Source of the DNA: an uncultured Chloroflexia bacterium
GTDB lineage: Bacteria > Chloroflexota > Anaerolineae > Anaerolineales > Anaerolineaceae
DNA length: 32,000 bases
Assembly: GCA_963704755.1 (NCBI GenBank)
Contig: OY969938.1
Span: forward strand, 4,710,001-4,742,000
Direction of reading: 5' to 3'
Part shown: positions 5,431 through 28,874 of the stretch, one piece after another
Layout: the number at the start of each line of letters is the position of its first letter
Numbering within the stretch: the stretch's first letter is position 1
Translations under genes and position numbers: made by a program
Notes under the pieces: model-generated
Database searches by the model: none
What the model saw: only the letters and a program-made list of their open reading frames with translations
What the model was told of the DNA's origin: nothing

Positions 5431-5434
5431 CCCC

Positions 5435-8258: not shown

Positions 8259-8580
8259 GGATATGGTTAAAAACCGAGAATATACTCATTAATTAAACAC
8301 TCCAACGGGTGAGACCGAACCACACTGGCGAGGGTTTTGGTGAAAGTTAAGACGACGTATATTCTGATTGTGCAAAAATGGTAGAGAAAACGATACTGCC
8401 CGAATTAAAGCCGAGAGAGAAATTGCTGTCGTGCAGTAACGTTTACGCTCAATCCAGTCACAATCGGGAGGGGTTATCAGAATAAAAAATATACCTGTCT
8501 AACTCTCATGAAATTTGTCTGCAAATATTGAATAACCCATTAGGCAAGAACGAAAAGTGTTTTCACTCGGAGGAGAATTT

Positions 8581-11280
8581 ATGAAAAATAACAATTTCCT
8601 CACCAAGGCTCTGACAGAAACAGCCATTACTCGGCGAAGTTTCCTGAAATGGAGTGCCATCCTGGGTGGAACAACCGCACTTGCGGGGGGGCTGAAATTT
8701 GGCTTGAAGCCTGCGAAAGCCGATGATACAGCTCAAGATGCAGGTCAATGGATTCCTGTTGCCTGCTGGCATAACTGCGGCGGTCGCTGTTTGAACGTAG
8801 CCCTGGTGAAAGACGGCGTGGTTATCCGCCAGAAAACCGATGACACGCACCCTGATAGCCCGGATTTTCCGCAGCAGCGCGGCTGCCAGCGTGGACGTTC
8901 ACAACGTCATCAGGTGTTTGGCGTTGACCGCATCAAATACCCCATGAAGCGTAAGAATTGGGCTCCCGGCGGCGGCAATAAAGATTTACGTGGTGTTGAT
9001 GAGTGGGTGCGTATTTCCTGGGATGAAGCGCTGGATATTGTGGCGAGCGAAATCAAAAGTGTCAAAGATAATTATGGCAACACGGCTTTCTTCACCCCCC
9101 GCGGCAATAGCAAACTCCTCAATCTCTATGGTGGAGAAACCGGTTCTTACGGCGTAACTTCGGATGGTGCCTGGCCTCTGGTCCAAACCATGATGTCCGG
9201 TAGCTTATACGCCGCAAACGACCGCCTGGATCTTCGCAACGCCAATTTGATCGTTCTTTGGGGGTCTGACCCTGCCTGGAGCAGCGCCGGAAATCCCAAT
9301 TACAATTATTTGCAGGCCAAGAGGGCAGGGGCGAAATTCATTCTTGTGGATCCGTATTACAACGCCACAGTACAAAGCCTGGCCGACGAATGGATCCCCG
9401 TGAGGCCGTCTACCGATGCGGCTCTCTTGCTCGGTATGGCCTACCATATGATCACCCACAACCTGCAGGACCAGGATTTCCTGGATAAATACGCCCTCGG
9501 TTTCGATGCCGATCATATGCCCGATGGTGCCGATCCGCAGGGCAGCTTCAAGGATTACGTCCTGGGCACCTACGATAACACTCCCAAGACACCCGAATGG
9601 GCCTCCGAGATTTGTGGTACCCCTCCGGATGTGATCCGCGATTTTGCCCAGGAAATTGCCACCACCAAACCGATGGTTTTCCAATCCTCGTCGGCTGCAG
9701 CTCGAACTTATCTTGGCCAGCAGTTCTGCCAGGCATTCCTGACCGTGGGCTGGATGACTGGTAACGTAGGCTTTTCAGGTGGTGGTGTCTTCCACAACTA
9801 CCACAGTGCGGCCAGCTACGGTGGCGCTACACTGGTGAAACCCGGATCGGCCGGATTGCCAGGTGTGCCAAATCCTCTCTGCCCGAATGGAGATGGCTAT
9901 GGCTTTGCCAAGCCTGAAGAAGCGGGTAGTCATCTTGTGGTTTACGAAGAGAGTTGGGATGCCATTCTGAATGGCGCATACACCTCACTACAAGGAACAA
10001 TGGATGAGGCGAACGCGGATGGCAAGATCCCAGTCGATATCCGATTGCTGTACATTGTCCGTGATGGTAACGGCGGAAATGCATTAAACCAATCCGCTGG
10101 TATTCCCAAGGGCATTGAGGCCTTCAGGAAAGTGGATTTCGTTGTAACCAACGATATTGTTCTCTCGACGGTGTCCAAGTACGCCGATGTGGTTCTACCC
10201 TCGACGACACCTTGGGAACAAGACTTTGGTGGTTTCTTGACCGGTAACCCAGAAATGTTGCTCTGGTACAACCAGGTCACCGAGCCGCTTTTTGAAGCTC
10301 GCGACTCACAATGGATCGAAAGTCAATTAGCCACTCGGTTGGGCTTGGACCCGAATGCCCTCTTCCCCATTTCGCGGACCCAGCAGGTGTTCAACCAATT
10401 GGCGGGCGCCACGGTGATCAAAAATGACGGCTCCGATTACGAACCTTTGGTGACGATTACCGCTGACGACATCCAGAAACTTGGCGTCGATGGCAAACCT
10501 CAACAAGGCCGGATCACCTTTGATGAACTCAAGACCAAGGGCGTGTACCAGGTAGAACACCACCCTGGAGATGCATTCGGATTTGTCTCCGGTAAGGATT
10601 TCCGCGACGATCCGGAGGCCAATCCCATTTCGACGGCCAGCGGTAAGCTGGAAATCTATTGCCAGGCACTTTCGGATAAGATCGCAGCTTATCGCCTTTC
10701 TACCTGCCCACCGATTGCCCAATATCGAAAACCGGTCGAAGGTTACGAAGATACCTTTGCCGATTGGGATAAAAAGATCAAAGGCGATTATCCTTTACAG
10801 ATGGTCACCATTCACTATCCTCGCCGCAGCCACTCGGTATTCGACAACATCAGCAATTTGCGCCGTGCTTACCCCCAGGAAGTAATGATGAACACCCTGG
10901 ACGCCCAGGAACGCGGTATCAAATCGAACGACTATGTTCAGGTATCCAGTCGCTGGGGTAAAGTCCTGCGCCCGGTGTTTGTGTCTGACAAGGTGCTCCC
11001 CGGTGTGGTAATGATCGGTGAAGGCGCCTGGGTCGAGATGGACGAGACGCTTGGAATCGATAAGGCCGGGGCAACCAACATGTTGAACGGCACCCATCCG
11101 ACCGGCCAGGGCGAAGAACCGTGGAACTCCTGCAATCTCCAGGTGGAGAAATGGACCGGTGCCTCGCTGGAGGAAGACTATAAGTGGCCACACCGTGTAC
11201 CTATCAAGGACTCAACGGACGCTGTTGCGGACGATTGGCATCTGGAGCCCGATGTGATTAACCCCTTAAAGGATGCGTAA
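8581..11280 (+). CDS. dmsA: TAT-exported molybdopterin oxidoreductase catalytic subunit, DmsA/YnfE-like (paralogue 2)
   Basis: It has a twin-arginine signal (TRRSFLKWSAILGG...AKA) and an FS0 motif (CWHNCGGRC...C). GGAGGAG precedes ATG 8581. It is 899 aa, with a tail of about 45 aa that paralogue 1 lacks. Confidence 0.92.
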   Translation: MKNNNFLTKALTETAITRRSFLKWSAILGGTTALAGGLKFGLKPAKADDTAQDAGQWIPVACWHNCGGRCLNVALVKDGVVIRQKTDDTHPDSPDFPQQRGCQRGRSQRHQVFGVDRIKYPMKRKNWAPGGGNKDLRGVDEWVRISWDEALDIVASEIKSVKDNYGNTAFFTPRGNSKLLNLYGGETGSYGVTSDGAWPLVQTMMSGSLYAANDRLDLRNANLIVLWGSDPAWSSAGNPNYNYLQAKRAGAKFILVDPYYNATVQSLADEWIPVRPSTDAALLLGMAYHMITHNLQDQDFLDKYALGFDADHMPDGADPQGSFKDYVLGTYDNTPKTPEWASEICGTPPDVIRDFAQEIATTKPMVFQSSSAAARTYLGQQFCQAFLTVGWMTGNVGFSGGGVFHNYHSAASYGGATLVKPGSAGLPGVPNPLCPNGDGYGFAKPEEAGSHLVVYEESWDAILNGAYTSLQGTMDEANADGKIPVDIRLLYIVRDGNGGNALNQSAGIPKGIEAFRKVDFVVTNDIVLSTVSKYADVVLPSTTPWEQDFGGFLTGNPEMLLWYNQVTEPLFEARDSQWIESQLATRLGLDPNALFPISRTQQVFNQLAGATVIKNDGSDYEPLVTITADDIQKLGVDGKPQQGRITFDELKTKGVYQVEHHPGDAFGFVSGKDFRDDPEANPISTASGKLEIYCQALSDKIAAYRLSTCPPIAQYRKPVEGYEDTFADWDKKIKGDYPLQMVTIHYPRRSHSVFDNISNLRRAYPQEVMMNTLDAQERGIKSNDYVQVSSRWGKVLRPVFVSDKVLPGVVMIGEGAWVEMDETLGIDKAGATNMLNGTHPTGQGEEPWNSCNLQVEKWTGASLEEDYKWPHRVPIKDSTDAVADDWHLEPDVINPLKDA

Positions 11281-11283
11281 ACT

Positions 11284-11916
11284 ATGGCCAAACAATTAGC
11301 TTTTCATGTTGACCCGAGTGTGTGCATTGGCTGCAAGGCTTGCCAGATCGCCTGCCAGGATAAAAACGACCTGCCGCCTCAAATTCTTTGGCGACGTGTG
11401 TTCCATTACGGCGGTGGAAACTGGGTTTCAGACTCTAGTATTCCCAATCTCTATCGGGCCAGTAATGTTTACTCCTATTCCATTTCTGTGTCTTGCATGC
11501 ACTGCCAAAACCCGATTTGTACCGAGGTTTGCCCCACGGAAGCTATGCACAAACGCGAAGATGGCGTTGTTGTAATCGATGACACCAAGTGCGTTGGCTG
11601 CCGGTATTGCGAATGGGCCTGCCCCTACGGCGCTCCTCATTTCGACCAGGCCTCAGGCGTAATGACCAAATGCAACTTCTGCGAAGACCTGCTTGCCCAA
11701 GGCGAGAACCCGGCCTGCGTGGATGCATGCCCAATGCGTGCGATCGATTTTGGTGAGCTGGATGACTTGCGCCAGAAATATGGTGACGTCGACGCAATCG
11801 AGCCGTTGCCGGAATCCAGCTATACTCATCCCTCCCTGGTAATCACGCCCAATAAAAACGCTCAACCGAGCGGCAGCGGAACCGGCAAGATCCTGAACCT
11901 GCTGGAGGAGTTGTAA
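11284..11916 (+). CDS. dmsB: 4Fe-4S electron-transfer subunit, DmsB-like (paralogue 2)
   Basis: It carries the same four Cys clusters as 1682-2317 and is roughly two-thirds identical to it by eye. Confidence 0.9.
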   Translation: MAKQLAFHVDPSVCIGCKACQIACQDKNDLPPQILWRRVFHYGGGNWVSDSSIPNLYRASNVYSYSISVSCMHCQNPICTEVCPTEAMHKREDGVVVIDDTKCVGCRYCEWACPYGAPHFDQASGVMTKCNFCEDLLAQGENPACVDACPMRAIDFGELDDLRQKYGDVDAIEPLPESSYTHPSLVITPNKNAQPSGSGTGKILNLLEEL

Positions 11917-11917
11917 A

Positions 11918-12838
11918 ATGAATACTCGTGAATGGGCTCTGATCGCTTTTACAATTTTGAACCAGTTGGCCGTGGGCTCCTTCCTGATCCTGACCATCGT
12001 TCGCGCCTATGCCCTCAAAAAGAAGGGCGAGGACCAGGCAAACCTCTTGACCGACCGGGCTTATCTCGCCCTTATCCCAGTGGTAGGTGTTGCAGTTCTT
12101 GTTTCCCTTCTCCACCTGGGTAATCCGATCAATGCTCCGCACGCAATCGCAAACCTGGGAAGTTCGTGGCTTAGCCGTGAAATTCTCTTCGATCTACTCT
12201 TCGCTGCCCTGGTTCTTGTCTTTGGCGTCCTACAGTTTTGGAAGATTGCTTCTTCTGAACTTCGCAATGTCATTGCCTGGGTAACCGTAGTTGTTGGATT
12301 GGTTTTGGTTTTCATCATGGCAAGTGTGTACATGCTGCCGACCGATCCCTCCTGGAACAGTGCCGCAACTCCCCTGGCATTCTATTCGACCGCATTCTTG
12401 CTGGGTTCGCTTGCCACGGGTGTGGCCTTTGCAGCCAATTATGCCTATGTACAACGCGGCAAACCGGATTGCGCTAGCGATCAGTGCGACCTTTTGCGGG
12501 ACACAACTCGCGGAATTTCTATTACGGCGATCGTCTTCCTTGGTGTGGAGCTTGTTACTCTACCCATGTACCTTTCCAGCCTGGCTTCAGGTGGGGCGGC
12601 AGCCCAATCGAGTGTTCAGCTCATGGTGGGTTCCTTCACCGCACTATTTGTTCTGCGCCTGATTCTGGGTTTCGTCGGGGCGGGCATTCTGGGTCTGTTC
12701 CTCTATCGTTCCGCAGTCGATGCCGGACGTGAAAAGGTTTTGAGCTATCTGGTTTATAGCGCATTTGCTCTTGTGCTTATAGCCGAGGTTATGAACAGAT
12801 TCTTGTTCTATGCCACCCGTGTTAGAATCGGTATCTAA
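11918..12838 (+). CDS. dmsC: DmsC-type membrane anchor (paralogue 2)
   Basis: The N-terminus is MNTREWALIAFTILNQLAVG. The protein is polytopic and its C-terminus (RFLFYA.RVRIGI) matches paralogue 1. Confidence 0.85.
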   Translation: MNTREWALIAFTILNQLAVGSFLILTIVRAYALKKKGEDQANLLTDRAYLALIPVVGVAVLVSLLHLGNPINAPHAIANLGSSWLSREILFDLLFAALVLVFGVLQFWKIASSELRNVIAWVTVVVGLVLVFIMASVYMLPTDPSWNSAATPLAFYSTAFLLGSLATGVAFAANYAYVQRGKPDCASDQCDLLRDTTRGISITAIVFLGVELVTLPMYLSSLASGGAAAQSSVQLMVGSFTALFVLRLILGFVGAGILGLFLYRSAVDAGREKVLSYLVYSAFALVLIAEVMNRFLFYATRVRIGI

Positions 12839-16040: not shown

Positions 16041-16487
16041 TCAATTTTGCTTTTCCTGGCATTCCGGGCAGATACCGTAGAAGTCCAGGCGATAACCGGT
16101 GATGTCGAAACCGGATGGGTGGGCTGCCTGCTGGACGAATTCTGGGTTGAGGTTCTCTCCAGCGTCGATGATCTTGTGGCACTTGATGCAAATAATGTGC
16201 GCGTGCGGGAGAGGCAAACGGCCATCATAGCGGTTATCGTCGTTGCTAAAACCCAACTCGAGCACCTCACCCATTTCTTTGAGCAGGGCCAGGGTTTTAT
16301 AAACCGTTCCCGGGCTCATGGTGGGGTAATCTTCCTTCAGTTGATCGTAAAGTTGGGCCGCGCTGGGGTGTGCGGTCGTCGTGGCCAGGATGTGCAACAG
16401 CGCCATCCGTTGGGGCGTCATGCGGCAGTCGCGTTCCCGCAGTTTGTGAACCAGCTCTTCGAATCGATCTTCTTGTACTTTTTCCAT
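16041..16487 (-). CDS. Fur-family metalloregulator (PerR-like by context)
   Basis: It is 148 aa, with the R.T.QR..ll DNA-binding region, an HAH motif and paired CxxC motifs (CIKC, CPEC). It is divergent from a peroxiredoxin gene. Confidence 0.85.
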   Translation of the reverse strand: MEKVQEDRFEELVHKLRERDCRMTPQRMALLHILATTTAHPSAAQLYDQLKEDYPTMSPGTVYKTLALLKEMGEVLELGFSNDDNRYDGRLPLPHAHIICIKCHKIIDAGENLNPEFVQQAAHPSGFDITGYRLDFYGICPECQEKQN

Positions 16488-16748
16488 AGAACCGCTAATT
16501 ATTTCTAACTACCCAGGCTCGCGTAAGAAGCCCTCGGATTTTAGTTGTTCCCAGGGGTAAGCCCCGCGACTACTAAAATATGACTTTTTAATCCGGCAGC
16601 CGGGCAGTTGTAATTATTCCTTATAGATATTGAATCTCCGTTAGGATAATAACACTTCTTGGATGGGCGAGTCAAGTGGGACGGGAGGGTTATTTTGTCA
16701 CTTTTTTGGATCGCCCTTCTGTCAGGGGGGGTATGTGACGCTTGTCCC

Positions 16749-16776
16749 TGGTCAAGGAAGCCAGAAAATATATAAT
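16749..16776 (+). promoter_or_regulatory. Candidate sigma-70-type promoter of the peroxiredoxin gene
   Basis: A perfect TATAAT lies at 16771-16776, with TGGTCA 16 nt upstream. Confidence 0.35.
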
Positions 16777-16786
16777 AGTTTCTAGT

Positions 16787-16818
16787 TGATAACGAATATC
16801 AATAAAGAATCATTATCA
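16787..16818. promoter_or_regulatory. Two adjacent Fur/PerR-type operator boxes
   Basis: TGATAACGAATATCA (16787-16801) resembles the 7-1-7 consensus TGATAATnATTATCA, with a TGATA-N5-TATCA core. AAAGAATCATTATCA (16804-16818) has a perfect ATTATCA right half. Both lie between the candidate -10 and the RBS. Confidence 0.5.
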
Positions 16819-16832
16819 AAATTGGAGGATCG

Positions 16833-17543
16833 ATGTCTGACATAGTCAATACAGAAACTACAGTGCATGTACCGCTGATCGGTGAGACGGCGCCTTCATT
16901 CACTGCGGAAACAACCCAGGGCGTCATTCATTTTCCGGAAGATTACAAGGGCAAGTGGGTGATCTTATTCTCGCATCCGGCGGACTTTACCCCGGTCTGC
17001 ACGACCGAATTTATGACTTTTGCTAAATTGCAGCCGGAATTCGAAAAACGGAACACGCAACTGGTGGGGCTATCCATCGATAGCATTTACAGCCACATCG
17101 CCTGGCTGCGGACGATCCGCGAGAAGCTGCAATATAAAGATATCAAAGATATGGAAGTGACCTTCCCGCTGATCGCCGATTTGACCATGGAAGTGGCTAA
17201 AAAATACGGCATGCTCCAGACCCAGGTCAGCGATCGCCAGGCCGTTCGGGCGGTGTTCTTCATCGACCCACAGAGCAAAGTCCGCGCGCTGATTTATTAC
17301 CCGCCTTCCAACGGACGTAATTTCGAGGAGATCTTCCGCCTGCTGGTGGCTATGCAGACCAGCGACAAGTATGATGTGGCTACCCCTGCCGACTGGCAGC
17401 CGGGCGACGATGTGATTGTGCCGCCTCCAGGTTACTGCGGAACGGCTAAAGAGCGCGTCCAAATCGAAGATCCCGATATCCACGTCCAGGATTGGTTCTT
17501 CACATTCAAGAAGATTTCCAAGGACAAACTGAATTCGAATTAG
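16833..17543 (+). CDS. Peroxiredoxin (Prx6/1-Cys-like subfamily)
   Basis: It has the FSHPADFTPVCTTE active-site motif and is 236 aa. GGAGG lies 5 nt upstream. Confidence 0.9.
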   Translation: MSDIVNTETTVHVPLIGETAPSFTAETTQGVIHFPEDYKGKWVILFSHPADFTPVCTTEFMTFAKLQPEFEKRNTQLVGLSIDSIYSHIAWLRTIREKLQYKDIKDMEVTFPLIADLTMEVAKKYGMLQTQVSDRQAVRAVFFIDPQSKVRALIYYPPSNGRNFEEIFRLLVAMQTSDKYDVATPADWQPGDDVIVPPPGYCGTAKERVQIEDPDIHVQDWFFTFKKISKDKLNSN

Positions 17544-17615
17544 CAACTGCTCAGGCTTCTGTTAACAAGTCCCCGGATTGAGCAATTACGCGAATTAATC
17601 AATTCTTGCCAATTC

Positions 17616-17710
17616 CAGAGGCCGGGCCGGTCGAACGAGGGCGTTTTCGTCAAACGTGTTTTGGAAATCCACACGAGCTGCCTTGTTAGTCAATACCGGC
17701 CCCGCCTCTG
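17616..17710. repeat. Long-range inverted repeat (16 bp with one mismatch) enclosing 63 nt
   Basis: CAGAGGCCGGGCCGGT (17616-17631) pairs with ACCGGCCCCGCCTCTG (17695-17710). Confidence 0.4.
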
Positions 17711-17727
17711 ATAATGAAAAGATGTAA

Positions 17728-17785
17728 AAATATTGTTTAAAAAGAAAAACGACGCCTGCGTCGTTTTTCTTTTTAAACAATATTT
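17728..17785. repeat. 58-nt perfect palindromic hairpin (28-bp stem)
   Basis: AAATATTGTTTAAAAAGAAAAACGACGC (17728-17755) is the exact reverse complement of 17758-17785; I checked it base by base. Confidence 0.7.
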
Positions 17786-17854
17786 CCGGCATGCCATGTT
17801 TTGCGGCTGCCCAAATCCAGAATTATTCATACTGTTCGGCAAAAGGGGAAGTGC

Positions 17855-17911
17855 AGGGTGTTTTCATGATTTTTTGTGTGCGAAGCATACTAAAAATCAT
17901 GAAAACACCCT
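17855..17911. repeat. Perfect 20-bp inverted repeat with a 17-nt loop
   Basis: AGGGTGTTTTCATGATTTTT (17855-17874) is the exact reverse complement of 17892-17911. Confidence 0.6.
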
Positions 17912-17962
17912 CTTCTTCTAAACCTGCCTGAGCAGTCATGTTTCTGTTACAATTTTCTGGTA

Positions 17963-18706
17963 ATGTTGATCTTGATTGGGGTAAGAAGATCACAAAGGAT
18001 GCCTGCAATGAAAAATGTTTCGCTTAGCTTCCAAAAAAACAAATATAAATTTTTCCTGACCGGCTTGCTGGCGGCAGCTACCTTCATTTCCCTGATTCTG
18101 GCAGTTACCCAACATTTCGTCAGTGATTTACGCAATTACCAGTTTATCCTTTTCAACCTGGCCCTGGCCTGGATCCCGTTGATCGCGGCTTCGATTGCCT
18201 ACCTGAGTATGGGTAACCGGGTGACTTTTTACCTGGTCATGCCGATCAGCACGCTGGCCTGGCTGATATTTTTTCCCAACGCGCCCTACCTGCTGACCGA
18301 TTTCCAGCACCTGTCTGGCACATCACCCGATTCGATCGTGTGGTTCGACGTGATCGTGCTGATCTGGGTAGCCTGGACCGGGCTGCTGCTGGGCATGTCG
18401 TCCTTGTACCTGATGCAAGAAATCATCACACGGGCGTTTAACCGCACGATCGGCTGGTTTTTTGCCATCGGCGCAACAATTCTAAGCAGTATTGGGGTTT
18501 ACCTGGGGCGCTTTTTACGCTGGAATAGTTGGGATATTTTGCAAGACCCCATACCGATCGCCAAAGACATGGCCGGCATCGTCCGCCACCCGTTTTCCAA
18601 CCTGTCCACCTACGTGTTCACCTTTTTGTTTACGCTCTTGATATTGTTTATTTACGTGGCCATCCACATTTTTGGAAATATGATCCGGGAACAAAAAGAT
18701 AATTAG
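17963..18706 (+). CDS. DUF1361-like polytopic membrane protein
   Basis: FNLALAWIPL, FPNAPYLLTDFQHL and GRFLRWNSWD resemble the DUF1361 signatures as I recall them. The protein has 5-6 hydrophobic helices. The start could instead be ATG 17999 or ATG 18008. Confidence 0.65.
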   Translation: MLILIGVRRSQRMPAMKNVSLSFQKNKYKFFLTGLLAAATFISLILAVTQHFVSDLRNYQFILFNLALAWIPLIAASIAYLSMGNRVTFYLVMPISTLAWLIFFPNAPYLLTDFQHLSGTSPDSIVWFDVIVLIWVAWTGLLLGMSSLYLMQEIITRAFNRTIGWFFAIGATILSSIGVYLGRFLRWNSWDILQDPIPIAKDMAGIVRHPFSNLSTYVFTFLFTLLILFIYVAIHIFGNMIREQKDN

Positions 18707-18801: not shown

Positions 18802-18851
18802 ACCTCATCAATTTTCTTGATGAGCCTCCATAGACAAACCCTATACCGCTT

Positions 18852-18865
18852 GTGATAATTATCAC
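18852..18865. promoter_or_regulatory. 14-bp perfect palindrome, candidate operator of the tusA-qmo-like operon
   Basis: GTGATAATTATCAC lies between a possible -35 (TTGTGA, 18850-18855) and a possible -10 (TATCTT). It sits about 225 nt upstream of the tusA ATG. Confidence 0.4.
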
Positions 18866-19090: not shown

Positions 19091-19345
19091 ATGGATGCAG
19101 TAGATCTCGCAAATGTACAGGCAGCTAAAGTTGTGGACGCTCGGGCTATGTCCTGCCCAGGGCCCTTATTGGAAGCCAAAAAAGGAATTGCGACGGTCAA
19201 AGTCGGTGAAGTGCTGGAAGTCTGGTCCGGCGACGCCAACACCAAAGATGATATGCCCCGCTGGTGCCAAAAAGTCGGCCACGAATTCCTGGGCGTAGTG
19301 CCCTGTGATGGCTACGAGCGGCTGTTTATCAAACGGTTGAAATAA
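19091..19345 (+). CDS. tusA: TusA/SirA-family sulfur carrier protein
   Basis: It is 84 aa with the D.R...CP.P....K motif (DARAMSCPGPLLEAKK). AAGGAG lies upstream. Confidence 0.85.
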   Translation: MDAVDLANVQAAKVVDARAMSCPGPLLEAKKGIATVKVGEVLEVWSGDANTKDDMPRWCQKVGHEFLGVVPCDGYERLFIKRLK

Positions 19346-19364
19346 ATTGGAAGCCTCACCTGTG

Positions 19365-19820
19365 ATGAACGGTGAAGCCCCAGTCCCAATGGCCGGTCCG
19401 CAGCCCAAAATCCTGATTTTGGGCACGCTTTCAGGCGGATATGCAGGGGCCGATTCGACCGGCCAGAGCCACCTGGATTACCCGCCGAATACGTACATCC
19501 TGCCGGTCATGTCGCCGGTAATGTTCCCGCCCGAATTTTATATCCATGCCTTTGAGCGCGGCATTGATGGAATCATCGTGATGTACAGCGGCACCGACAG
19601 CCCCTACAAAGTCGAGGCAGCCGGCACAGCCCAATTGATCAACCGCACCTACGCTCTGATGAAGGAGCGCGGGATCAATATCAAACGGCTGCGCCTGGCG
19701 GCGATCTGTACTGTATGTGTCAAGCCATTCCTCAAGGAAGTCAACCTGATGAACGATCTGTTGAAGAATATTGGTTGCGTCAAGGGAGAACTGGCCGGAG
19801 AGGAGCAGGCGCATGGATGA
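19365..19820 (+). CDS. MvhD/FlpD-like domain protein lacking all canonical cluster cysteines
   Basis: It aligns with the MvhD pattern as recalled (GAD..G......YPPN..I..VM....V.P.F...AF..G.DG..V, then RLRL). The Cys positions are replaced: CCNWC becomes GTLSG, MCSG becomes MSPV, and GCHxGDCHY becomes MYSGTDSPY. The start is uncertain (TTG 19347, ATG 19365 or ATG 19389). Confidence 0.7.
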   Translation: MNGEAPVPMAGPQPKILILGTLSGGYAGADSTGQSHLDYPPNTYILPVMSPVMFPPEFYIHAFERGIDGIIVMYSGTDSPYKVEAAGTAQLINRTYALMKERGINIKRLRLAAICTVCVKPFLKEVNLMNDLLKNIGCVKGELAGEEQAHG

Positions 19821-21141
19821 CCTTCAGGTAGATGCCCTGGTGGTTGGCGGGGGAATTGCCGGGATGCAGTCGGCCCTCGACCTGGCCAACCAGGGGTTCC
19901 AGGTCGCCCTGGTCGAGCGCGAAGCCAGTATCGGCGGCCGGATGATTACCCTCAGCAAGGTGTTCCCCACCCTGGACTGCTGTAGTTGCATTACCACCCC
20001 CAAGATGTCGGATGTGGCCCATCACGCCAACATCCATTTGCTGACGTATTGTGAAATCCAATCGGTGCGGGAAGCAGGCAGCGGATTCAGCGCGAGCGTC
20101 TTGAAAAAGCCGCGTTACGTGGACGAAGCCAAATGCACCGGCTGCCGCCAATGCGAATACGAATGCCCCATCACCGTGCCCAGTCCCTTCGACCGGGATT
20201 TGGGCGCTTACCGGGCTATCCGGGTTCCGTTCTCCACGGCCGTGCCGCAGAAAGCAGTGCTGGATCCGGATTACTGCCTGTGGTGCGGCAAGTGCGAAAA
20301 AGCCTGCCCGGTCATGGCCGTGGATTTCAGCCAGCAGCCCGAGATATTTGAAATCGAGGCTGCGGCGCTGGTGATGGCCACCGGGTTCGACTTGAACCCA
20401 CTGGATACTAAAAAAGAATATGGCAGCGGAAAATTGCATAACGTGATCGATCCGCTGATGATGGAACGCCTGCTGGCCCCCACCGGCCCGTACGGCCGGG
20501 TCCTAAGGCCGGGAGATGGCAAGGAACCCTCTTCGATTGCTTACATCCAATGCGCCGGCTCGCGCGATGACACCCTGGGAATAACCTATTGCTCACGGGT
20601 GTGCTGCATGTATGCGATCAAGCAGGCCATGCTGCTCAATGGGGCGCTGCCCCTGGCGGACGTGACCATCTATTACATGGACATCCGCACCTTTGGCAAA
20701 GGTTATGAACAGTTCTATCAGAATGCCAAAGCCATGGGGGTGGAATTCATACGCGGCAAAGTCGCCTCGATCCGCGAGGATGAAGAGCAAAACCCGATCG
20801 TAAAGGTGGAGTTGACCGTCGAAGGTGAGATTGTGGAACGGACTCACGACCTGGTCGTGCTCTCCCAGGGGATCATCCCCACGGCCAATCCAACCGAAAT
20901 TTACCATTTACCGGTTGCAGCAGATGGCTTCATCTCGGTGCCTGCACCGGATGCCGCCCCGACCGTGACCGAGCGGCCGGGTGTATTTGTGACCGGAACG
21001 GCCATGGGGCCGATGGATATCGTCGATAGCATTATCTCAGCCAGCGCGGCTGCCAGCGAAGCCTCGGCCTATATCCGAGAACACCGAGACAGCCAGGTAC
21101 CGGTGAGCTTGAGCGAGGAAAGGGAGGCCGTCCATGCCTGA
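19813..21141 (+). CDS. HdrA-like FAD/FeS flavoprotein (QmoA-like)
   Basis: It has the VVGGGIAGM dinucleotide fold, TLDCCSC, an inserted 2x[4Fe-4S] region (CTGCRQCEYECP, CLWCGKCEKACP) and the HdrA signature CAGSRD...YCSRVCC. The ATG overlaps the upstream stop (ATGGATGA). Confidence 0.85.
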   Translation: MDDLQVDALVVGGGIAGMQSALDLANQGFQVALVEREASIGGRMITLSKVFPTLDCCSCITTPKMSDVAHHANIHLLTYCEIQSVREAGSGFSASVLKKPRYVDEAKCTGCRQCEYECPITVPSPFDRDLGAYRAIRVPFSTAVPQKAVLDPDYCLWCGKCEKACPVMAVDFSQQPEIFEIEAAALVMATGFDLNPLDTKKEYGSGKLHNVIDPLMMERLLAPTGPYGRVLRPGDGKEPSSIAYIQCAGSRDDTLGITYCSRVCCMYAIKQAMLLNGALPLADVTIYYMDIRTFGKGYEQFYQNAKAMGVEFIRGKVASIREDEEQNPIVKVELTVEGEIVERTHDLVVLSQGIIPTANPTEIYHLPVAADGFISVPAPDAAPTVTERPGVFVTGTAMGPMDIVDSIISASAAASEASAYIREHRDSQVPVSLSEEREAVHA

Positions 21142-23191
21142 GAACAAACCAGCCAGCGGGACCCAACCCGATATGCCTGCCTCGCCATCTCCAAAAATTG
21201 GTGTTTACGTTTGCCACTGCGGCGGCAATATCGGCAGCGTGGTCGAGTGTGAGGCGGTCGCCAAGGCGTTGAGCAAGTATGCTGACGTTGTAGTGACCCG
21301 CACCGATAAATCGCTGTGTTCGGATACCGGCCAGTCGAGGATCGAACAGGACATCAAAGAATTAGGCGTCAACCGGGTCGTGATCGGCGCCTGTGCCCCC
21401 ATGCTCCACCAGCGCACTTTCCAGGCCGCGGTAGCCCGCGCCGGCTTGAACCCGTACCTGTACCACCATGTTGGGCTGCGCGAGCAGGATTCCTGGGTTC
21501 ACGGCCACGATAAGAAAGGCGCCACCGAAAAAGCGATCCGCTTGATGGCCGCCGGGGTGGCCAAAGCAAAACTGCTCCAGCCGCTCGAGCCGGTCACTTT
21601 GAAGGCCGAGCAGCATGCCCTGGTCGTGGGTGGAGGCGTATCCGGGCTGCGGGCTGCTCTCGATATCGCCCGCCAGGGGCTGCAGGTCTCGCTGGTCGAA
21701 AAATCGCCCTTCCTGGGCGGACGCATGGCCCAGTTGGAGACGGTTTTCCCCACCGAGGAGGATGCGCGCGGATTGCTAAAAACCCTGATCGAAAAAGTCA
21801 GCGCTCATCCCAAGATAAAGATCTATACCCAGGCCGAAGTGACCGGCGTCAATGGATATGCCGGCAATTTCACCATCACTGTCCGCCAACATTCGCGCGG
21901 CGTTAGCACGGAGAATGGCCAGGCGCTGATGGATGCCTGTTCCCAGGAAGTGCCGGACGATTTCAACGGCGGATTGAAGCAGCGTAAGGTGATTTATCGC
22001 CTTTACGAGGGCTGTTACCCTGCCGAGCCGGCCGTAGATTGGGACCATTATAACGGCGAGCCGATCCAGGCCAACGGTAGCGCGTTGGTGTTGAAGGAAG
22101 AGCCGCAAACATTCGAGCTAAACGTCGGGGCTGTGGTCATGGCGACCGGCTTCGATCCGTACACGCCGGCGGCCGGGGAATTCGGTTTCGGTTCGCAGCC
22201 GCAAGTGATCACGCTGCCGCAATTGATCCGCCTGGTCGCCTTGACCGGTGCAGACCAGCCCTTGCAATGGAATGGCCAGCCGGTCCGTGACCTGGCGCTG
22301 ATCCATTGTGTCGGCAGCCGCCAGATCGAAGGCGTCAACGAACCCCAGGCCGACGGGCAGGTGAACAACTACTGCTCACGGGTCTGCTGCACGGCCTCGC
22401 TGCACGCCCTGGAAGAAATCCACCAGCGCTTCCCGCAGGTTCACCTGTTCGACCTGCACCAGGACATCCGCACCTACGGGCGCGGCCACGAGGAATATTA
22501 TCGCCAGACCCTGGCCCACGAGGTGCGCTTCCTGCGCTACGAGGGCGAGGAACCGCCAACCGTATCCGCAGCACCGCAAGGCGATACCCACCCGGTTTTG
22601 GTCCAGGTTAAAGATACCTTGACCTTTGGCGAAGAGCTCGAGATCCCGGTGGACCTGGTCGTCCTGGCGGTGGGGATGATGCCACGCGATATCCAGGACC
22701 TGGTGCAATTGTTGAAAATCTCCCGCGGAAACGACCGCTTCCTGCTGGAAGTGCACCCCAAACTGCGGCCGGTCGAGACGGCGGCCAATGGGGTGGTGCT
22801 GGCCGGAACGGCTCAAGGGCCGATGAATATCCAGGAGAGCTTGAGCGCTGCTTCGGCGGCGGCGGCGAAAGTGATCGCACTTTTAGGCCGCGGTAAAGTG
22901 GAGCAGGCGCCTTTCGTGGCGGTGGTCGATGCCGGGCGCTGTACTGGGACGGGAGCCTGCGTGCAGGCTTGCACGTACGAAGGCGCGCTGTCCTTAGAGA
23001 CCTTCGAGGAAAACGGCCAATCCGTGCGACGGGCAGTGGTCACCCCGGCCAACTGTGTGGGCTGCGGAGCCTGCGTGAGCGCGTGTCCTAACCAGGCCAT
23101 CGACGTGGCCGGCTGGACCCTGGCGCAGTACGAGGCCATGGTCGCCGCAATCGGCCTGGACGTACCGGCCCTGGTGGAGGAAGCAGCATGA
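21134..23191 (+). CDS. Large HdrA-like flavoprotein (QmoB-like) with a C-terminal 2x[4Fe-4S] domain
   Basis: It has an N-terminal IGVYVCHCGGNIG...ACAP...LNPYL domain, VVGGGVSGL, CVGSRQ...YCSRVCC, and C-terminal CTGTGACVQAC and CVGCGACVSACP. It overlaps the upstream gene by 8 nt. Confidence 0.85.
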   Translation: MPENKPASGTQPDMPASPSPKIGVYVCHCGGNIGSVVECEAVAKALSKYADVVVTRTDKSLCSDTGQSRIEQDIKELGVNRVVIGACAPMLHQRTFQAAVARAGLNPYLYHHVGLREQDSWVHGHDKKGATEKAIRLMAAGVAKAKLLQPLEPVTLKAEQHALVVGGGVSGLRAALDIARQGLQVSLVEKSPFLGGRMAQLETVFPTEEDARGLLKTLIEKVSAHPKIKIYTQAEVTGVNGYAGNFTITVRQHSRGVSTENGQALMDACSQEVPDDFNGGLKQRKVIYRLYEGCYPAEPAVDWDHYNGEPIQANGSALVLKEEPQTFELNVGAVVMATGFDPYTPAAGEFGFGSQPQVITLPQLIRLVALTGADQPLQWNGQPVRDLALIHCVGSRQIEGVNEPQADGQVNNYCSRVCCTASLHALEEIHQRFPQVHLFDLHQDIRTYGRGHEEYYRQTLAHEVRFLRYEGEEPPTVSAAPQGDTHPVLVQVKDTLTFGEELEIPVDLVVLAVGMMPRDIQDLVQLLKISRGNDRFLLEVHPKLRPVETAANGVVLAGTAQGPMNIQESLSAASAAAAKVIALLGRGKVEQAPFVAVVDAGRCTGTGACVQACTYEGALSLETFEENGQSVRRAVVTPANCVGCGACVSACPNQAIDVAGWTLAQYEAMVAAIGLDVPALVEEAA

Positions 23192-23475
23192 GTACTCAAA
23201 TGTCCCGGGGAGAAATCCTCAAGCAAATGCGCGCGGCTCATGCTCAGGAAGTAGAACGCGCTCAGGCGTTGTTGAAAGAACAAAAACACGCCCAGCAGCA
23301 AATCTTTCAAGCGCTGCAGGAAGGGCCGAAAAGCGTCCCTGAGGTGGCCCAGGCGACCGGGATTCAAGCTCAACAGGTGTTGTGGTACCTGGCAGCGATG
23401 AAAAAATACAACCTGGTGGTCGAAAAAGGGATGGATGGCGACTATCCTCTGTACCAGAAGGCGGAGGAAGATTGA
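23188..23475 (+). CDS. Small hypothetical protein; the C-terminal half looks winged-helix-like
   Basis: It is 95 aa. Its start overlaps the qmoB-like stop (ATGA) and its stop lies 1 nt before the next ATG. The segment SVPEVAQATGIQAQQVLWYLAAMKKYNLV resembles an HTH recognition unit. No family was recognised. Confidence 0.5.
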   Translation: MSTQMSRGEILKQMRAAHAQEVERAQALLKEQKHAQQQIFQALQEGPKSVPEVAQATGIQAQQVLWYLAAMKKYNLVVEKGMDGDYPLYQKAEED

Positions 23476-23476
23476 T

Positions 23477-24652
23477 ATGAGCACACGGGTTGACCTGAAT
23501 TTATTAACCGAAATCAAAAAGTACGGAACGGTTAATATCGAGAAATGTTACAACTGCGGTAACTGCACGGCAATTTGCCCGCTGTCCGAAAACGGCGAGA
23601 CTTTCCCGCGGCGTTTGATCCGCTACGCCCAACTGGGTTTGAAGGACCGCTTGTTGAGCAGCAAAGAGCTGTGGATGTGCTATTACTGCGGCGAGTGTAC
23701 CCAAACCTGCCCGAAAGAAGCCGAGCCGGGTGAGTTCATGGCCGCGGCCCGGCGCTATGCCATCGCCAGTTATGATCCGATTGGGCTGGCCAGGCTGCTT
23801 TATACCTCGCCGGTGCTCAGCCTGGCGGTGCTTTTAATGCTGCCCATCCTGATTGCCCTGGTGGTGTTCACCTCGCATGGCAGCATGGATACCACGACCT
23901 TGAAGTTGTTCGAGTTTATCCCGTCGGCAGCTATCCACACCATGGGCATCATCGCCATGGTGATCGTGGCCCTGACCGGTTTGATGGGCATGGTCAACAT
24001 GGTCCGCCAGGTGCGTAAAGAGAACCCGCTGGTGCAGGCTCATACGGCAAGGCTCAACTGGTTTGGCGCCTTGTGGAACGCGCTGTTCGTCGAGGGGCTT
24101 GCGCAGCAGCGTTACCGCCGTGACTGCCAGACTGCGGCGGACCAGCCCCCCTGGTACGCTCAAAAATGGTTCGTCCATGCCACCATCGTGTGGGGCTTCC
24201 TGGGGCTGTTGGCCGCGACCGCCCTGGATTTTGCACTCGAGCTGCTGGGCATCAAGGCGGTGGGCACCTGGGTGCCGTTGTGGTATCCCATCCGCCTGTT
24301 AGGCACCCTGGCGGGCCTGGCGATGCTGTACGGCACGAGCACAGCCGCCATCCGGCGCATCCGTAAAACGGATGAAGCCAGCGCAGTATCCGATCGCTCG
24401 GATTGGGTCTTCTTGATCCTGTTGTGGCTGACCGGTGTGAGTGGGTTCGTGCTGGAAATCGCCGTGTATCTGTCGCACCCGGGTCCGTGGGCTTATTGGA
24501 CGCTGCTCTTCCATATCTCGATAGCCGGAGAGCTGCTTCTGCTGCTGCCCTTCACTAAATTTGCCCACGCGGTCTATCGCACGGTCGCGCTGTACTTCCA
24601 TGTGCTTAAACCCTTACCGGAAAAAGAAATGGCCCCGGTGAGCGCAGACTGA
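23477..24652 (+). CDS. QmoC-like fusion: HdrC-type 2x[4Fe-4S] domain plus a six-helix HdrE/NarI-like cytochrome b-type membrane domain
   Basis: It has CYNCGNCTAICP and CYYCGECTQTCP, followed by six hydrophobic helices. His residues sit in helices (HTMG, HATIVWG, FHISIAG, FAHAVY). GGAGGAAG precedes ATG 23477. Confidence 0.8.
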   Translation: MSTRVDLNLLTEIKKYGTVNIEKCYNCGNCTAICPLSENGETFPRRLIRYAQLGLKDRLLSSKELWMCYYCGECTQTCPKEAEPGEFMAAARRYAIASYDPIGLARLLYTSPVLSLAVLLMLPILIALVVFTSHGSMDTTTLKLFEFIPSAAIHTMGIIAMVIVALTGLMGMVNMVRQVRKENPLVQAHTARLNWFGALWNALFVEGLAQQRYRRDCQTAADQPPWYAQKWFVHATIVWGFLGLLAATALDFALELLGIKAVGTWVPLWYPIRLLGTLAGLAMLYGTSTAAIRRIRKTDEASAVSDRSDWVFLILLWLTGVSGFVLEIAVYLSHPGPWAYWTLLFHISIAGELLLLLPFTKFAHAVYRTVALYFHVLKPLPEKEMAPVSAD

Positions 24653-24747
24653 TCGATTATTTGCAGGTTGTTCCATCTCAAAATTGTGCAAAACCCGCCA
24701 GAAAACTTGCGCGGGAGGAAAAATTCCAAAATTTCACGGAGGTTCAA

Positions 24748-25110
24748 ATGGCTCAGAAAATGGCTGTCGTCTGTAATGGGGAAACCGGCGCAAATATTAT
24801 GCCCACATTGATTTTCTCGACTTCGGGAATCGCCCTGGATTATGAAGTTCATGTGTTCATTTGCCCGGCCGGCGCCAAATGGGCGCTCAAAGGCGAATTG
24901 GAAAAATTAGGCCAACCCAAAGGTATGCCGAATCCCATCAAACTATTCAATGATCTTTTGGATGGCGGCGGCGAAGTTGTCCTGTGCGAACTGGCCCTGG
25001 AAAACAAGGGCATCGATCCCCAAGATCTGCGCGATCCGCGCATCAAGATCAAAAAGGCACCGCCTTTCCTGATGGATGTCGAAGGCGCTGCTCAGACGTA
25101 CGTGTTCTAA
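24748..25110 (+). CDS. DsrE/DsrF-like family small sulfur-relay-type protein
   Basis: It is 120 aa. KMAVVCNGE......PTLIF...G.A....V.VF, then EVVLCELAL and a hydrophobic C-terminus, match the DsrE-like fold pattern as recalled. CGGAGG precedes ATG 24748. Confidence 0.65.
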   Translation: MAQKMAVVCNGETGANIMPTLIFSTSGIALDYEVHVFICPAGAKWALKGELEKLGQPKGMPNPIKLFNDLLDGGGEVVLCELALENKGIDPQDLRDPRIKIKKAPPFLMDVEGAAQTYVF

Positions 25111-25135: not shown

Positions 25136-25180
25136 GTGGGCCAGAATCAAGTGGTATGAGGGGTCTGGCCCACATTTTTA
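25136..25180 (+). terminator. Rho-independent terminator of the tusA-qmo-dsrE operon
   Basis: GTGGGCCAGA (25136-25145) pairs with TCTGGCCCAC (25164-25173). ATTTTTATTT follows. Confidence 0.65.
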
Positions 25181-25207: not shown

Positions 25208-25416
25208 AAACCACGGAGGCACAGAGTACACGGAGAAAAGAAAGAGAAGAAGAGAAAATATTTAGAAAGGGCGCCGTCGTAGGGTGCGTTTTAGGGCTGG
25301 CTTCCTCGGCGCTGGCGAACTACCAGTCCACTAGCCCGCCCTGGCGTGCCCGGAACGCACCGTTATGGCGCTGCCTTTACGGATCAAACCACGGAGGCAC
25401 AGCGTACACGGAGAAA
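25208..25416 (+). repeat. Composite repeat A: short unit, then a ~124-bp structured module, then a short unit
   Basis: The units AAACCACGGAGGCACAGAGTACACGGAGAAA (25208-25238) and AAACCACGGAGGCACAGCGTACACGGAGAAA (25386-25416) flank a module at 25262-25385. The reverse complement of this composite recurs at 28645-28874. Confidence 0.8.
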
Positions 25417-25482: not shown

Positions 25483-25527
25483 TTGCCCGTAACCCACCAT
25501 CCGTATTTAACGGTGGGTTACGGGCAA
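25483..25527. repeat. Perfect 16-bp hairpin inside the repeat tract
   Basis: TTGCCCGTAACCCACC (25483-25498) pairs with GGTGGGTTACGGGCAA (25512-25527) across a 13-nt loop. Confidence 0.6.
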
Positions 25528-25667: not shown

Positions 25668-25699
25668 AAAACCACGGAGGCACAGCGTTCACGGAGAAA
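25668..25699 (+). repeat. Copy of the short repeat unit
   Basis: AAAACCACGGAGGCACAGCGTTCACGGAGAAA. Confidence 0.75.
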
Positions 25700-25726: not shown

Positions 25727-26660
25727 TTATTCCTGCACCCCTTGTTCGGGCAAACTGAGCAGATCGGCATTTTCAGGGGCGTGGATGAAACTCCAAAATA
25801 CGTCTCGCGGCCGGTTCGATTCGCCGATGTGCTTTTTGATCATGTAAATGGTCCGTTGGAGGTTGAGCCCGTCCACGTGGACGCTCACCACATCGCCGCG
25901 CTCGAGCGGGTAATCGGCGGCCAACTCGGAAACAAATCCCACCCCAAATCCGGCTGCGACCGTACGGACGATGGCTTCGGCGTTGCCCAACTCCATAAAT
26001 ACGTTCAAATCTTCCAGACCAATATCGTGCTTGGCCAGCTCCTCGAACACAACACTGCGCGTCCCCGAAGTCGGTTCGCGCAAAATCAGGGGTTCTTGAA
26101 TTAATTCCGAACTATCGATCGAGGGACGGCGGGCCCAACGATGCCCGGCCGGAACGATCAGAATAATTTTGTCGGTGAAGAATTCCTGGATTTCCAGGTT
26201 AGGGCCAGAAATTTCGCGACTCAATACCCCAATTTGCGCTTCGCCATCCAACATCCTTTGGGCGACCTGTTCTGGAGCGCAGCCGGGGATGCGCACATGG
26301 ATGCGTGGATACCTTTGGCGGAACCGCGCGGCTAACTGCGGCAGGACATACTTTCCGGCGGTAGTACTGCAGGCGATACACAATTCCCCCACCACGTCTT
26401 GCATGGAAGACATCATGGATTCCAAATCGGAGGTGTCGCGCATCAGGCGATGCGCCCAGGGCAGTAACAGCCGGCCGGCATCGGTCAGGCGCAGTCCATT
26501 GCCGCTGCGGTCGAATAAAACCACTCCCAACTCACTCTCAAGGGTCTTGATGTGGTGGCTGACGGTGGGTTGGCTGAGATGCAGGTTTTTGGCCGCCTCG
26601 GAAAAACTCAGAACTCTCGGCTGCGGAAAGGAAGGTTTGAATGCGCTGGATATCGATCAT
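25727..26660 (-). pseudogene. LysR-family transcriptional regulator with an apparent 1-nt frameshift inside the HTH
   Basis: The frame from ATG 26660 reads MIDIQRIQTFLSAAES and then runs out of frame to a stop. The adjacent frame continues LSFSEAAKNLHLSQPTVSHHIKTLESELGVVLFDRS and then a full LysR substrate-binding domain to 25727. Removing one T of the TT (the AA at 26612-26613 on the plus strand) restores a single ORF. Confidence 0.7.
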
Positions 26661-28644: not shown

Positions 28645-28874
28645 TTTTTTCTGTGGTCTCTGTGCCGTGGTTTGGTTCGTAAAGGCAGCGCTATATTGGT
28701 GCGTTCCGGGCACGCCAGGGTAAGCCTATGAGCTTATTATTTAACCCGATTCGGAATGTCAGCCCTTAAACGCACCCTACGATGATGCTCATTCCAAAAA
28801 TTCTTCTCTGCGTCCCTCAGCGCCTCTGCGGTAATATTTCTTTTCTCCGTGCCCCCTGTGCCTCCGTGGTTTTC
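28645..28874 (-). repeat. Composite repeat B, an inverted copy of composite A
   Basis: Its reverse complement reads unit (28837-28874), degenerate unit (28801-28832), module (28675-28800), unit (28645-28674). The module ends match A closely (TCGTAGGGTGCGTTT.AGGGCTG and CCCTGGCGTGCCCGGAACGCACC....GCGCTGCCTTTACG.A.CAAACCACGG), but the central ~45 nt differ. Confidence 0.8.

Follow-up and report, generated by a model that had tools for sequence, protein, structure and literature searches.

A widespread Qmo/Hdr-type operon links a putative menaquinone-dependent flavoprotein complex to TusA- and DsrE-family sulfur carriers

QmoABC of type I, the Desulfovibrio type of sulfate reducers and Chlorobi, combines two HdrA-like flavoproteins and an MvhD-like module with QmoC, a di-heme HdrC/HdrE-like fusion, and is presumed to be linked to menaquinone (PMC3333476). 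Since 2012 it has been an open question how these two HdrA-like subunits function and whether they rely on confurcation or on a third partner (PMC3333476). In type II Qmo, known from Ammonifex degensii and Ca. Vulcanisaeta moutnovskia, qmoAB is nearer to typical hdrA than to bacterial qmoAB (Neukirchen et al. 2023; PMC10504309). Here we describe an operon at positions 19091-25110 of a 32-kb stretch of DNA from an uncultured Chloroflexia bacterium (contig OY969938.1, positions 4,710,001-4,742,000; hereafter the window) that has counterparts of the components of type I Qmo named above and also encodes a TusA-family and a DsrE-family protein. This operon is real, strongly conserved and widespread. 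Our tentative reading, drawn from gene content, is that it encodes a menaquinone-linked, HdrA-type membrane complex whose cytoplasmic partner would be a TusA/DsrE sulfur relay and not adenosine 5'-phosphosulfate (APS) reductase.

The operon consists of seven tightly coupled open reading frames (ORFs), all on the plus strand, in the order tusA, mvhD-like, hdrA-short, hdrA-long, a winged-helix gene of 95 codons, qmoC-like and dsrE. The mvhD-like gene and hdrA-short meet at ATGGATGA (19813-19820), hdrA-short and hdrA-long at ATGCCTGA (21134-21141), and hdrA-long and the winged-helix gene at ATGA (23188-23191), while a single base separates the TGA of the winged-helix gene from the ATG of qmoC (23475/23477). 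Six of the seven starts have a GGAGG-like ribosome-binding site in front of them. The operon is closed by an intrinsic terminator (25136-25180, plus strand) in which a 10-bp GC-rich stem, GUGGGCCAGA/UCUGGCCCAC at 25136-25173, is followed by the U-run AUUUUUAUUU; its minimum free energy is -19.9 kcal/mol (z = -1.9), and a consensus terminator scan missed the hairpin because its loop is longer than 8 nt. An initial annotation, made from the DNA sequence alone, had reported seven packed same-strand ORFs and a terminator at this position: its junction strings are exact, and the stem and U-run bear out the terminator. Its gene order and domain calls also hold when the products are compared with Pfam and NCBIfam profile hidden Markov models (HMMs), except that the short HdrA-like protein is 442 aa long and not 443 aa.

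Both flavoproteins are HdrA-type proteins that have kept different parts of the HdrA domain set. The product of hdrA-short (QmoA-like; 19813-21141, plus strand) aligns with positions 139-561 of the HdrA model NF040770 (4.7e-145) and with residues 146-568 of the methanogen HdrA 5odc_A (9e-122), and its motifs include an FAD site, a DCxxC remnant, the inserted 2x[4Fe-4S] ferredoxin domain and the HdrA-type CxGSRD...CSxxCC motif. The product of hdrA-long (QmoB-like; 21134-23191, plus strand; 685 aa) is a full-length HdrA-type protein that covers positions 1-640 of the 777 in NF040770 (2.5e-169) and residues 3-634 of 5odc_A (6e-145); a map of its cysteines reveals that the N-terminal Cys-rich and C-terminal ferredoxin domains are kept and that the cysteines of the inserted ferredoxin domain, like the DCxxC remnant, are lost. 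Unlike QmoB with its C-terminal MvhD-like domain, hdrA-long has no fused MvhD domain. Its product and the MvhD-like protein instead cover successive parts of the HdrA2 model (1-640 and 647-774 of 777 positions), and by this measure the two together correspond to an HdrA-MvhD fusion that is split over two genes. As judged by these alignments, methanogen HdrA is a closer match to both flavoproteins than canonical QmoA/B is.

The qmoC-like gene (23477-24652, plus strand) encodes a 391-aa protein in which an N-terminal HdrC-like 2x[4Fe-4S] domain is fused to a cytochrome-b-type membrane domain. The protein matches the qmoC model NF038018 over its full length (2.8e-63), with 214.6 bits against an equivalog cut-off of 300, and also matches Fer4_8 and Nitrate_red_gam. 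Its N-terminal domain matches HdrC chains in the PDB (5e-15), which holds no Qmo structure. C24/27/30/34, C68/71/74/78, H154, H234, H346 and H364 are invariant among 21 homologues. The Qmo-like architecture that had been read from the sequence (i.e., two HdrA-type proteins with a QmoC fusion) is confirmed; of the proposed six-helix membrane domain with intramembrane histidines, the histidines stand, with four of them invariant, but a simple hydropathy scan reveals only five clear transmembrane segments and one weaker one.

The mvhD-like gene (19365-19820, plus strand; PF02662, 4e-15) encodes a protein of the MvhD fold, 151 aa long when counted from ATG 19365, the start used in the database gene call; the ORF could reach TTG 19347. 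Its AlphaFold model (pLDDT 79) has MvhD (5odh_D) as its best Foldseek match, with TM values of 0.78/0.85. Alignment revealed that the cysteines of methanogen MvhD, in CCxxC, VMC and GCHxGDC, are all replaced by other residues. The protein carries C121-x-x-C124 (157-aa numbering), which is conserved at 0.97-1.00 in 33 sequences of type 1 and at 0.90 in 29 of type 2, the two architectures of the operon described below. In the model, this CxxC lies at a helix N-terminus, between strand E109-113 and helix H119-136, and His42 is conserved in at least 85% of 35 clustered orthologues. Type-2 proteins retain two of the old cysteine positions in addition to the CxxC, for a total of four cysteines, and a rewired Fe-S cluster is possible in these proteins. 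The MvhD-like protein is the most conserved protein of the unit: the best 120 database homologues listed are 78-89% identical. Public records name such homologues 'hydrogenase iron-sulfur subunit', a label that is doubtful because the canonical ligands are absent. An MvhD fold with an invariant CxxC in place of the Fe-S cysteines would, if redox-active, be new for the family.

The two ends of the operon encode members of sulfur-carrier families, as the initial annotation had proposed. TusA (19091-19345, plus strand; 84 aa) matches PF01206 (3.2e-20; 72 bits against a cut-off of 28.6) and has both the fold and the CPxP cysteine of the family, with the active-site Cys22 lying in CPGP. Cys22 is invariant and Cys59 85% conserved among syntenic orthologues. 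With 37.8 bits against the NCBIfam TusA equivalog model (cut-off 78), the protein is not an equivalog of E. coli TusA. At the other end, dsrE (24748-25110, plus strand) encodes a small DsrE-family protein of 120 aa (PF02635, 6.8e-7; 29.9 bits against a cut-off of 22.7). Its start is most likely ATG 24748, which is preceded by GGAGG and yields a product identical to the deposited protein; the gap after qmoC is then 95 nt and not 8 nt. Cys80, in VLCELA (C109 when the 149-aa ORF is numbered), is conserved in 100% of 31 orthologues, and we take it to occupy the position of the TusD/DsrE active-site cysteine. The small DsrE-like protein has no NCBIfam match and hence no assignment to the DsrE2-5 subgroups, and it has no sequence relative in the PDB.

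A pattern scan of 185,579 species genomes (one genome per species) recovered 412 QmoC-like relatives, and the best 80 of these loci were compared by tblastn and ORF clustering. Two architectures emerged. Type 1 (31 loci), to which the window belongs, has the order tusA, mvhD-like, hdrA-short, hdrA-long, winged-helix gene, qmoC and dsrE. Type 2 (29 loci) has tusA, mvhD-like, a DsrE2-like gene, hdrA-short with an insert, an hdrA of 580 aa, the winged-helix gene and qmoC. The type-2 hdrA-short product is 910 aa long, and its insert is an NAD(P)H module of the GltD/NfnB type (Fer4_20 plus Pyr_redox_2); the DsrE2-like protein matches NF047629 (2e-52) at 177 bits against a cut-off of 210. The carrier genes recur with the complex: tusA and mvhD-like accompany it, with tusA first, in 60 of the 61 loci that have at least 6.6 kb of upstream sequence, and the small dsrE is present in 27 of the 28 type-1 loci with enough downstream sequence. 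A DsrE-family gene is likewise found in 28 of the 29 type-2 loci, as the DsrE2-like gene inside the operon in 26 and as the small dsrE in two more. The flanking carrier genes are therefore syntenic with the qmo-like genes in related genomes, in line with what the initial annotation supposed.

The claim that no APS reductase lies nearby also held. No apr, sat or dsr gene occurs anywhere in the window, and among the flanks of the 80 related loci no Apr-, Sat- or Dsr-like family recurs within 10 kb, so a rearranged fragment of an aprBA-adjoining locus finds no counterpart there. In addition, the 64 flanking ORFs of AprA-like size (520-760 aa) include no Apr-type family in the list of frequent ones. 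The families that do recur in the flanks are ArsR and LysR regulators, rhodaneses, DsrE2, a cupin-HTH (helix-turn-helix) protein, a histidine kinase, radical SAM proteins, TrmO, VKOR and NDH-2.

Type 1 is found in many Anaerolineae and other Chloroflexota, and in metagenome-assembled genomes (MAGs) labelled Ignavibacteriaceae, NC10, Thermodesulfobacteriota, Bacteroidota, Acidobacteria and delta-proteobacteria. Type 2 is mostly a feature of Actinomycetota, among them the cultured Cellulomonas, Actinotalea and Pengzhenrongella phosphoraccumulans; a few Anaerolineales have it too. Labels of MAGs with an intact unit also include Myxococcota and Actinomycetota; this list of phyla is approximate, and MAG labels can be wrong. 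Matching protein clusters number in the thousands in metagenomes from sludge, peat, sediment and springs. Two side observations concern the related loci. One locus (L047:10022-12237) lacks tusA, mvhD and hdrA and keeps a QmoC-like gene, a 192-aa ORF and a DsrE-like gene whose product is 66% identical to that of the window; this may reflect a QmoC-DsrE pair that can do without the rest, or a locus in decay. The 64 flanking ORFs of AprA-like size also include two that match Pyr_redox_2 and two that match Rhodanese; should these be the same two ORFs, their products would look like fusions of a CoA-disulfide/persulfide reductase with a rhodanese.

The remaining gene of the operon (23188-23475, plus strand) encodes a 95-aa winged-helix protein of ArsR/SmtB-like fold that has neither a cysteine nor the C-terminal alpha-5 helix. 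The gene recurs in 75 of 76 related loci, always between hdrA-long and qmoC. Its AlphaFold model (pLDDT 92) resembles YgaV (3cuo), SqrR (6o8k), SmtB and BigR in Foldseek, with TM values of about 0.55-0.6, and all its matches to Pfam and NCBIfam models are sub-threshold. At 50% identity the family is a small one of 377 clusters, and the 150 that were listed consist throughout of small stand-alone proteins, mostly of about 100 aa. A separate ArsR-family gene with two conserved cysteines lies directly 5' of tusA in 17 of the 31 type-1 loci, and SqrR and BigR, which sense sulfide or persulfide, are among its top solved matches together with YgaV. This upstream ArsR is not a canonical SqrR/BigR, as its first cysteine is off the position of SqrR Cys41 and it scores 47 bits against a BigR cut-off of 155; on sequence it is a relative of the sulfide-sensing clade. 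Its cysteines (in xLCKVF and LLxNCLVL; L003:5265-5594 and syntenic genes) are placed unlike the SqrR/BigR sensing pair, and it may represent a distinct subtype of thiol-based sensor.

From the gene content, folds, conserved cysteines and synteny, we infer the following subunit contacts, substrate, direction and possible bifurcation. By analogy with HdrABC-MvhAGD, the short and long HdrA-type proteins would form a heterodimer in place of the HdrA homodimer, and would hold the FAD cofactors in a way that mimics it. The HdrC-like domain of QmoC would join these flavoproteins to two hemes b and the quinone pool, replacing HdrB and the heterodisulfide. The MvhD-like protein would occupy the port at which electrons from hydrogenase enter the methanogen complex (i.e., the site of the mid-potential donor), and would offer there a CxxC without Fe-S ligands that could exchange thiol, disulfide or persulfide equivalents with Cys22 of TusA and Cys80 of DsrE. 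The net reaction would be a two-electron interconversion of sulfide or thiol and carrier-bound sulfane sulfur, coupled to the menaquinone pool. The initial annotation had likewise suggested a quinone-linked module that would act on sulfane sulfur held by carriers, or on a related thiol/disulfide. Run oxidatively, the complex could bifurcate, with reduced sulfur as mid-potential donor, menaquinone as high-potential acceptor and ferredoxin as low-potential acceptor (NAD(P)+ where the GltD module is present).

The direction is the least secure part of this proposal. With textbook potentials, which are not values for protein persulfides (about -270 mV for S0/HS-, about -74 mV for menaquinone, about -450 mV for ferredoxin and -320 mV for NAD(P)H), electron transfer from sulfide to menaquinone plus ferredoxin or NAD(P)+ is roughly balanced or favourable, and we therefore lean, with low confidence, towards the oxidative, bifurcating direction. 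The NAD(P)H module of type 2 is in keeping with a third redox partner whose potential is low or intermediate. Menaquinol-driven reduction of a persulfide would need a low-potential co-donor, as has been proposed for Qmo-AprAB (PMC3333476). A more specific proposal would make the unit a new class of bifurcating membrane complex, in which TusA, DsrE and a cluster-less CxxC on an MvhD fold feed reduced sulfur to an HdrA-type flavin that oxidises it, with one electron passing downhill through QmoC to menaquinone and the other uphill to ferredoxin (NAD(P)+ in the actinobacterial variant). We consider this unlikely; if it were true, abundant bacteria that are not sulfur specialists, such as Anaerolineae and Cellulomonas-type and Dermatophilaceae-type Actinomycetota, would draw low-potential reductant from sulfide.

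Several observations weigh against a complex that works on carrier-bound sulfur, in addition to the nature of the potentials used above. The unit has no CCG domain of the HdrB/HdrD type and no established site for the reduction of disulfides or persulfides. The two cysteines of the MvhD-like protein might just as well supply part of the ligands of an Fe-S cluster between subunits, and the four cysteines of type 2 are consistent with a rewired cluster. The missing HdrB-type catalytic subunit and the possible ligation of a cluster by the CxxC are the main weaknesses. The window itself is without the ArsR and rhodanese genes of its relatives, and the conserved LysR regulator considered below belongs to a clade tied to selenium and not to sulfur (PMC5322559).

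A rival reading dispenses with a sulfur substrate and makes the unit a general NAD(P)H/ferredoxin:menaquinone oxidoreductase, an HdrA-type bifurcating or confurcating coupling site in anaerobic energy metabolism; the TusA and DsrE proteins would then be needed only for maturation, cofactor sulfuration or regulation. Both flavoproteins are very similar to the bifurcating HdrA of methanogens, the NAD(P)H module of type 2 is bona fide, no operon product is a recognised sulfur-catalytic subunit, and the hosts, going by organism name and general knowledge of their physiology, are fermenters or facultative anaerobes and not sulfur specialists. Such a reading does not account for the near-invariable first place of tusA or for the retention of a DsrE-family gene in both architectures despite its differing position and subfamily. 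We know of no dedicated maturation factors of the TusA/DsrE kind for HdrA enzymes. Rhodanese genes and dithiol ArsR regulators recur near related loci, which also argues against it, and both speak for a sulfur relay. We regard an oxidoreductase of this general kind as unlikely, although it deserves some weight. That the unit is an ordinary QmoABC which works with AprAB from another locus of the genome, in dissimilatory sulfate reduction or sulfite oxidation, with tusA and dsrE incidental, is highly improbable. Its subunit set does equal QmoABC once the split MvhD is counted, and one public annotation names a homologue QmoC. Yet the QmoC-like protein falls well short of the curated threshold, apr and sat are missing from the window and from the recurrent neighbours of its relatives, and synteny with tusA is too nearly perfect to be incidental. 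The unit is also present in cultured Cellulomonas, Actinotalea and Pengzhenrongella, which to our knowledge do not respire sulfate. Type II Qmo proteins have moreover been reported in organisms without Apr or Dsr, with their role left open (PMC10504309).

The carriers could also handle a different substrate. One such reading, which the initial annotation had not raised, follows from the regulator downstream of the operon. In a selenium module, TusA-like and DsrE-like proteins (i.e., the domains of YedF as separate proteins) would carry selenopersulfide or selenide, and the complex would give electrons for the reduction of selenite or Se(0) under LysR control. HdrA and MvhD are classical selenoprotein families in methanococci, and the window contains two operons for reductases of the DmsA/YnfE family (dimethyl sulfoxide (DMSO)/selenate type). 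The convergent LysR gene downstream of dsrE (25727-26660, minus strand) has the 'selenium metabolism-associated LysR' model NF040786 as its best match; the window copy scores 175.5 bits, and full-length orthologues in two related loci (L003 and L004) score 248.9 and 247.1 bits, just under the cut-off of 250. The LysR_Se/HrsM clade is statistically tied to SelD and selenocysteine decoding, and in Methanococcus it controls the Cys-isoforms of selenoproteins (PMC5322559). YedF itself is a fusion of SirA/TusA-like and DsrE-like domains (PMC5322559). This LysR is, however, syntenic after dsrE in only 18 of the 31 type-1 loci, all from Chloroflexota, and in none of type 2, and the window copy appears frameshifted: near 26612-26620 its first ~16 codons, MIDIQRIQTFLSAAES, are out of frame with the remaining 267, whereas the orthologues are intact. 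It is either a pseudogene or an assembly error. TusA scores higher on TusA than on YedF models (at most 21.7 bits on the latter), and the DsrE-like protein lacks the CGxC motif of YedF (PMC5322559), with the two domains in separate genes ~5.4 kb apart. Selenocysteine variants of HdrA or MvhD in relatives were likewise rejected, as none of the 80 loci has an in-frame TGA aligned to any cysteine. The window has no selD, selA or selB, and the Dms-type operons are not syntenic elsewhere. Together these points make the selenium module improbable. We give a similarly low chance to a carrier-bound thiosulfonate (R-S-S-SO3-) derived from tetrathionate or thiosulfate, with the unit acting as a cytoplasmic, quinol-dependent tetrathionate/thiosulfonate reductase or in reverse. 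Archaeal DsrE3A is an established thiosulfonate carrier that hands thiosulfate to TusA (as cited in PMC11094781), and a high-potential acceptor of this kind would make menaquinol a competent donor without confurcation. The small DsrE, with its lack of an NCBIfam match, is not assignable to DsrE3A, no syntenic transporter of the YeeE/TsuA type for thiosulfate or tetrathionate was found, and the need for two HdrA-type flavoproteins in a downhill reaction would be unexplained.

A possible sigma-70-type promoter (18831-18859, plus strand; TAGACA-17-GATAAT with TG, 10 of 12 consensus matches) lies ~230 nt 5' of tusA and is weak evidence because such sites occur in the region at chance expectation. 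The 236-nt leader 5' of tusA has no significant fold (z = -1.3), for which reason no riboswitch or attenuator is proposed, and Rfam at gathering thresholds gives no match in the window, leader included. Directly 5' of tusA, 16041-18706 encodes a PerR-like Fur-family regulator (minus strand), a 1-Cys peroxiredoxin and a DUF1361 membrane protein, an arrangement that is not conserved in related loci. The two molybdoenzyme operons are paralogous and of DmsABC type (4-3206 and 8557-12838), each encoding an A subunit of the DMSO/selenate family, a four-cluster B subunit and a DmsC anchor and each followed by a TorD/NarJ-type chaperone; their A subunits score under the dmsA_ynfE subfamily cut-off, and their lack of synteny led us to reject them as part of the system. 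Between them, 3527-8199 encodes a polyferredoxin, a radical-SAM protein, an FmdE-zinc-finger protein and MobA. A dispersed intergenic repeat of 30-40 nt, AAACCACGGAGGCACAGnGTnCACGGAGAAA, occurs at 25211-25237, 25389-25415 and 25672-25698 (plus strand) and at 28843-28869 (minus strand). The first three copies fall within 520 bp of non-coding sequence that separate the terminator of the operon from the 3' end of the LysR gene, and the fourth is in another intergenic region. None is expected by chance, and the 82 related loci all lack the repeat. Between copies lies a perfect 16-bp hairpin (25483-25527).

These results bear on how such genes are read in genomes. Homologues of the unit's products carry the public labels 'QmoC', 'ferredoxin/nitrate reductase gamma subunit', 'hydrogenase iron-sulfur subunit' and 'predicted peroxiredoxin', and the counting of qmoABC as a marker could over-call sulfate reduction or sulfite oxidation in MAGs of Chloroflexota and Actinomycetota. 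If the unit handles sulfane sulfur, very abundant heterotrophs would possess a connection, so far not accounted for, from the quinone pool to the trafficking of sulfur in the cytoplasm. A Qmo relative with a different partner in cultured Cellulomonas, Actinotalea and Pengzhenrongella would also offer a second experimental handle on the Qmo question. The initial annotation did not recognise the arrangement as a characterised system, and in agreement with this full-text searches of the accessible literature found no description of a tusA-mvhD-hdrA-hdrA-qmoC-dsrE unit, although such an absence is no proof.

Among known systems, the unit differs from type I QmoABC in not adjoining aprBA or sat, in its extra conserved tusA, dsrE and winged-helix genes, in an MvhD module that has its own gene, upstream, and lacks the canonical Fe-S cysteines, in flavoproteins that are nearer to methanogen HdrA, and in a QmoC-like protein under the curated threshold. 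Its strong similarity to methanogen HdrA fits what has been published on type II Qmo, and judged by that description the Qmo-like complex is probably of the type II kind. The finding is to this extent known in part, since Apr-free type II Qmo proteins have been reported; the main text and supplement of the type II paper hold no mention that we found of an association with TusA, DsrE, MvhD-like or winged-helix proteins (PMC10504309). HdrABC-MvhAGD (5ODC and relatives) and HdrA2 provide the best sequence and fold matches of the flavoproteins, the MvhD-like protein and the N-terminal domain of QmoC. Compared with HdrABC-MvhAGD, the unit lacks HdrB and a [NiFe] hydrogenase (none is encoded in the window), its HdrC-like domain is fused to a membrane cytochrome b, its MvhD-like protein is without the [2Fe-2S]-ligand cysteines, and its HdrA is represented by two complementary degenerate paralogues.

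On the side of the sulfur carriers, sHdr (TusA/DsrE3/LbpA) is likewise an Hdr-derived complex that is genetically tied to TusA and DsrE-family transferases (PMC11094781), but neither the operon nor the window encodes sHdrB1/B2 (CCG), C1/C2, a lipoate-binding protein or a lipoate ligase, and two HdrA paralogues and a membrane QmoC are present instead. The rhd-tusA-dsrE2 relay and DsrEFH of sulfur oxidisers share a TusA plus a DsrE-family carrier with the unit, as well as the DsrE2-like protein of type 2 and the rhodaneses nearby (PMC11094781); here, in contrast, there is no rDsrAB or DsrC acceptor, and the carriers are encoded inside a quinone-linked flavoprotein operon. HdrL of Desulfobacterium has been described as an HdrA in which two domains bind NADH/FAD (summarised in PMC12142623), and the insert of the type-2 hdrA-short product resembles such HdrL/NfnB-DsrL-type modules, whereas the type-1 operon of the window has no such module. 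Set beside these systems, the architecture is that of a Qmo/Hdr variant with sulfur-carrier genes where APS reductase genes would be expected, and its gene content suggests that a sulfur-carrier relay may take the place of APS reductase as the partner of the complex.

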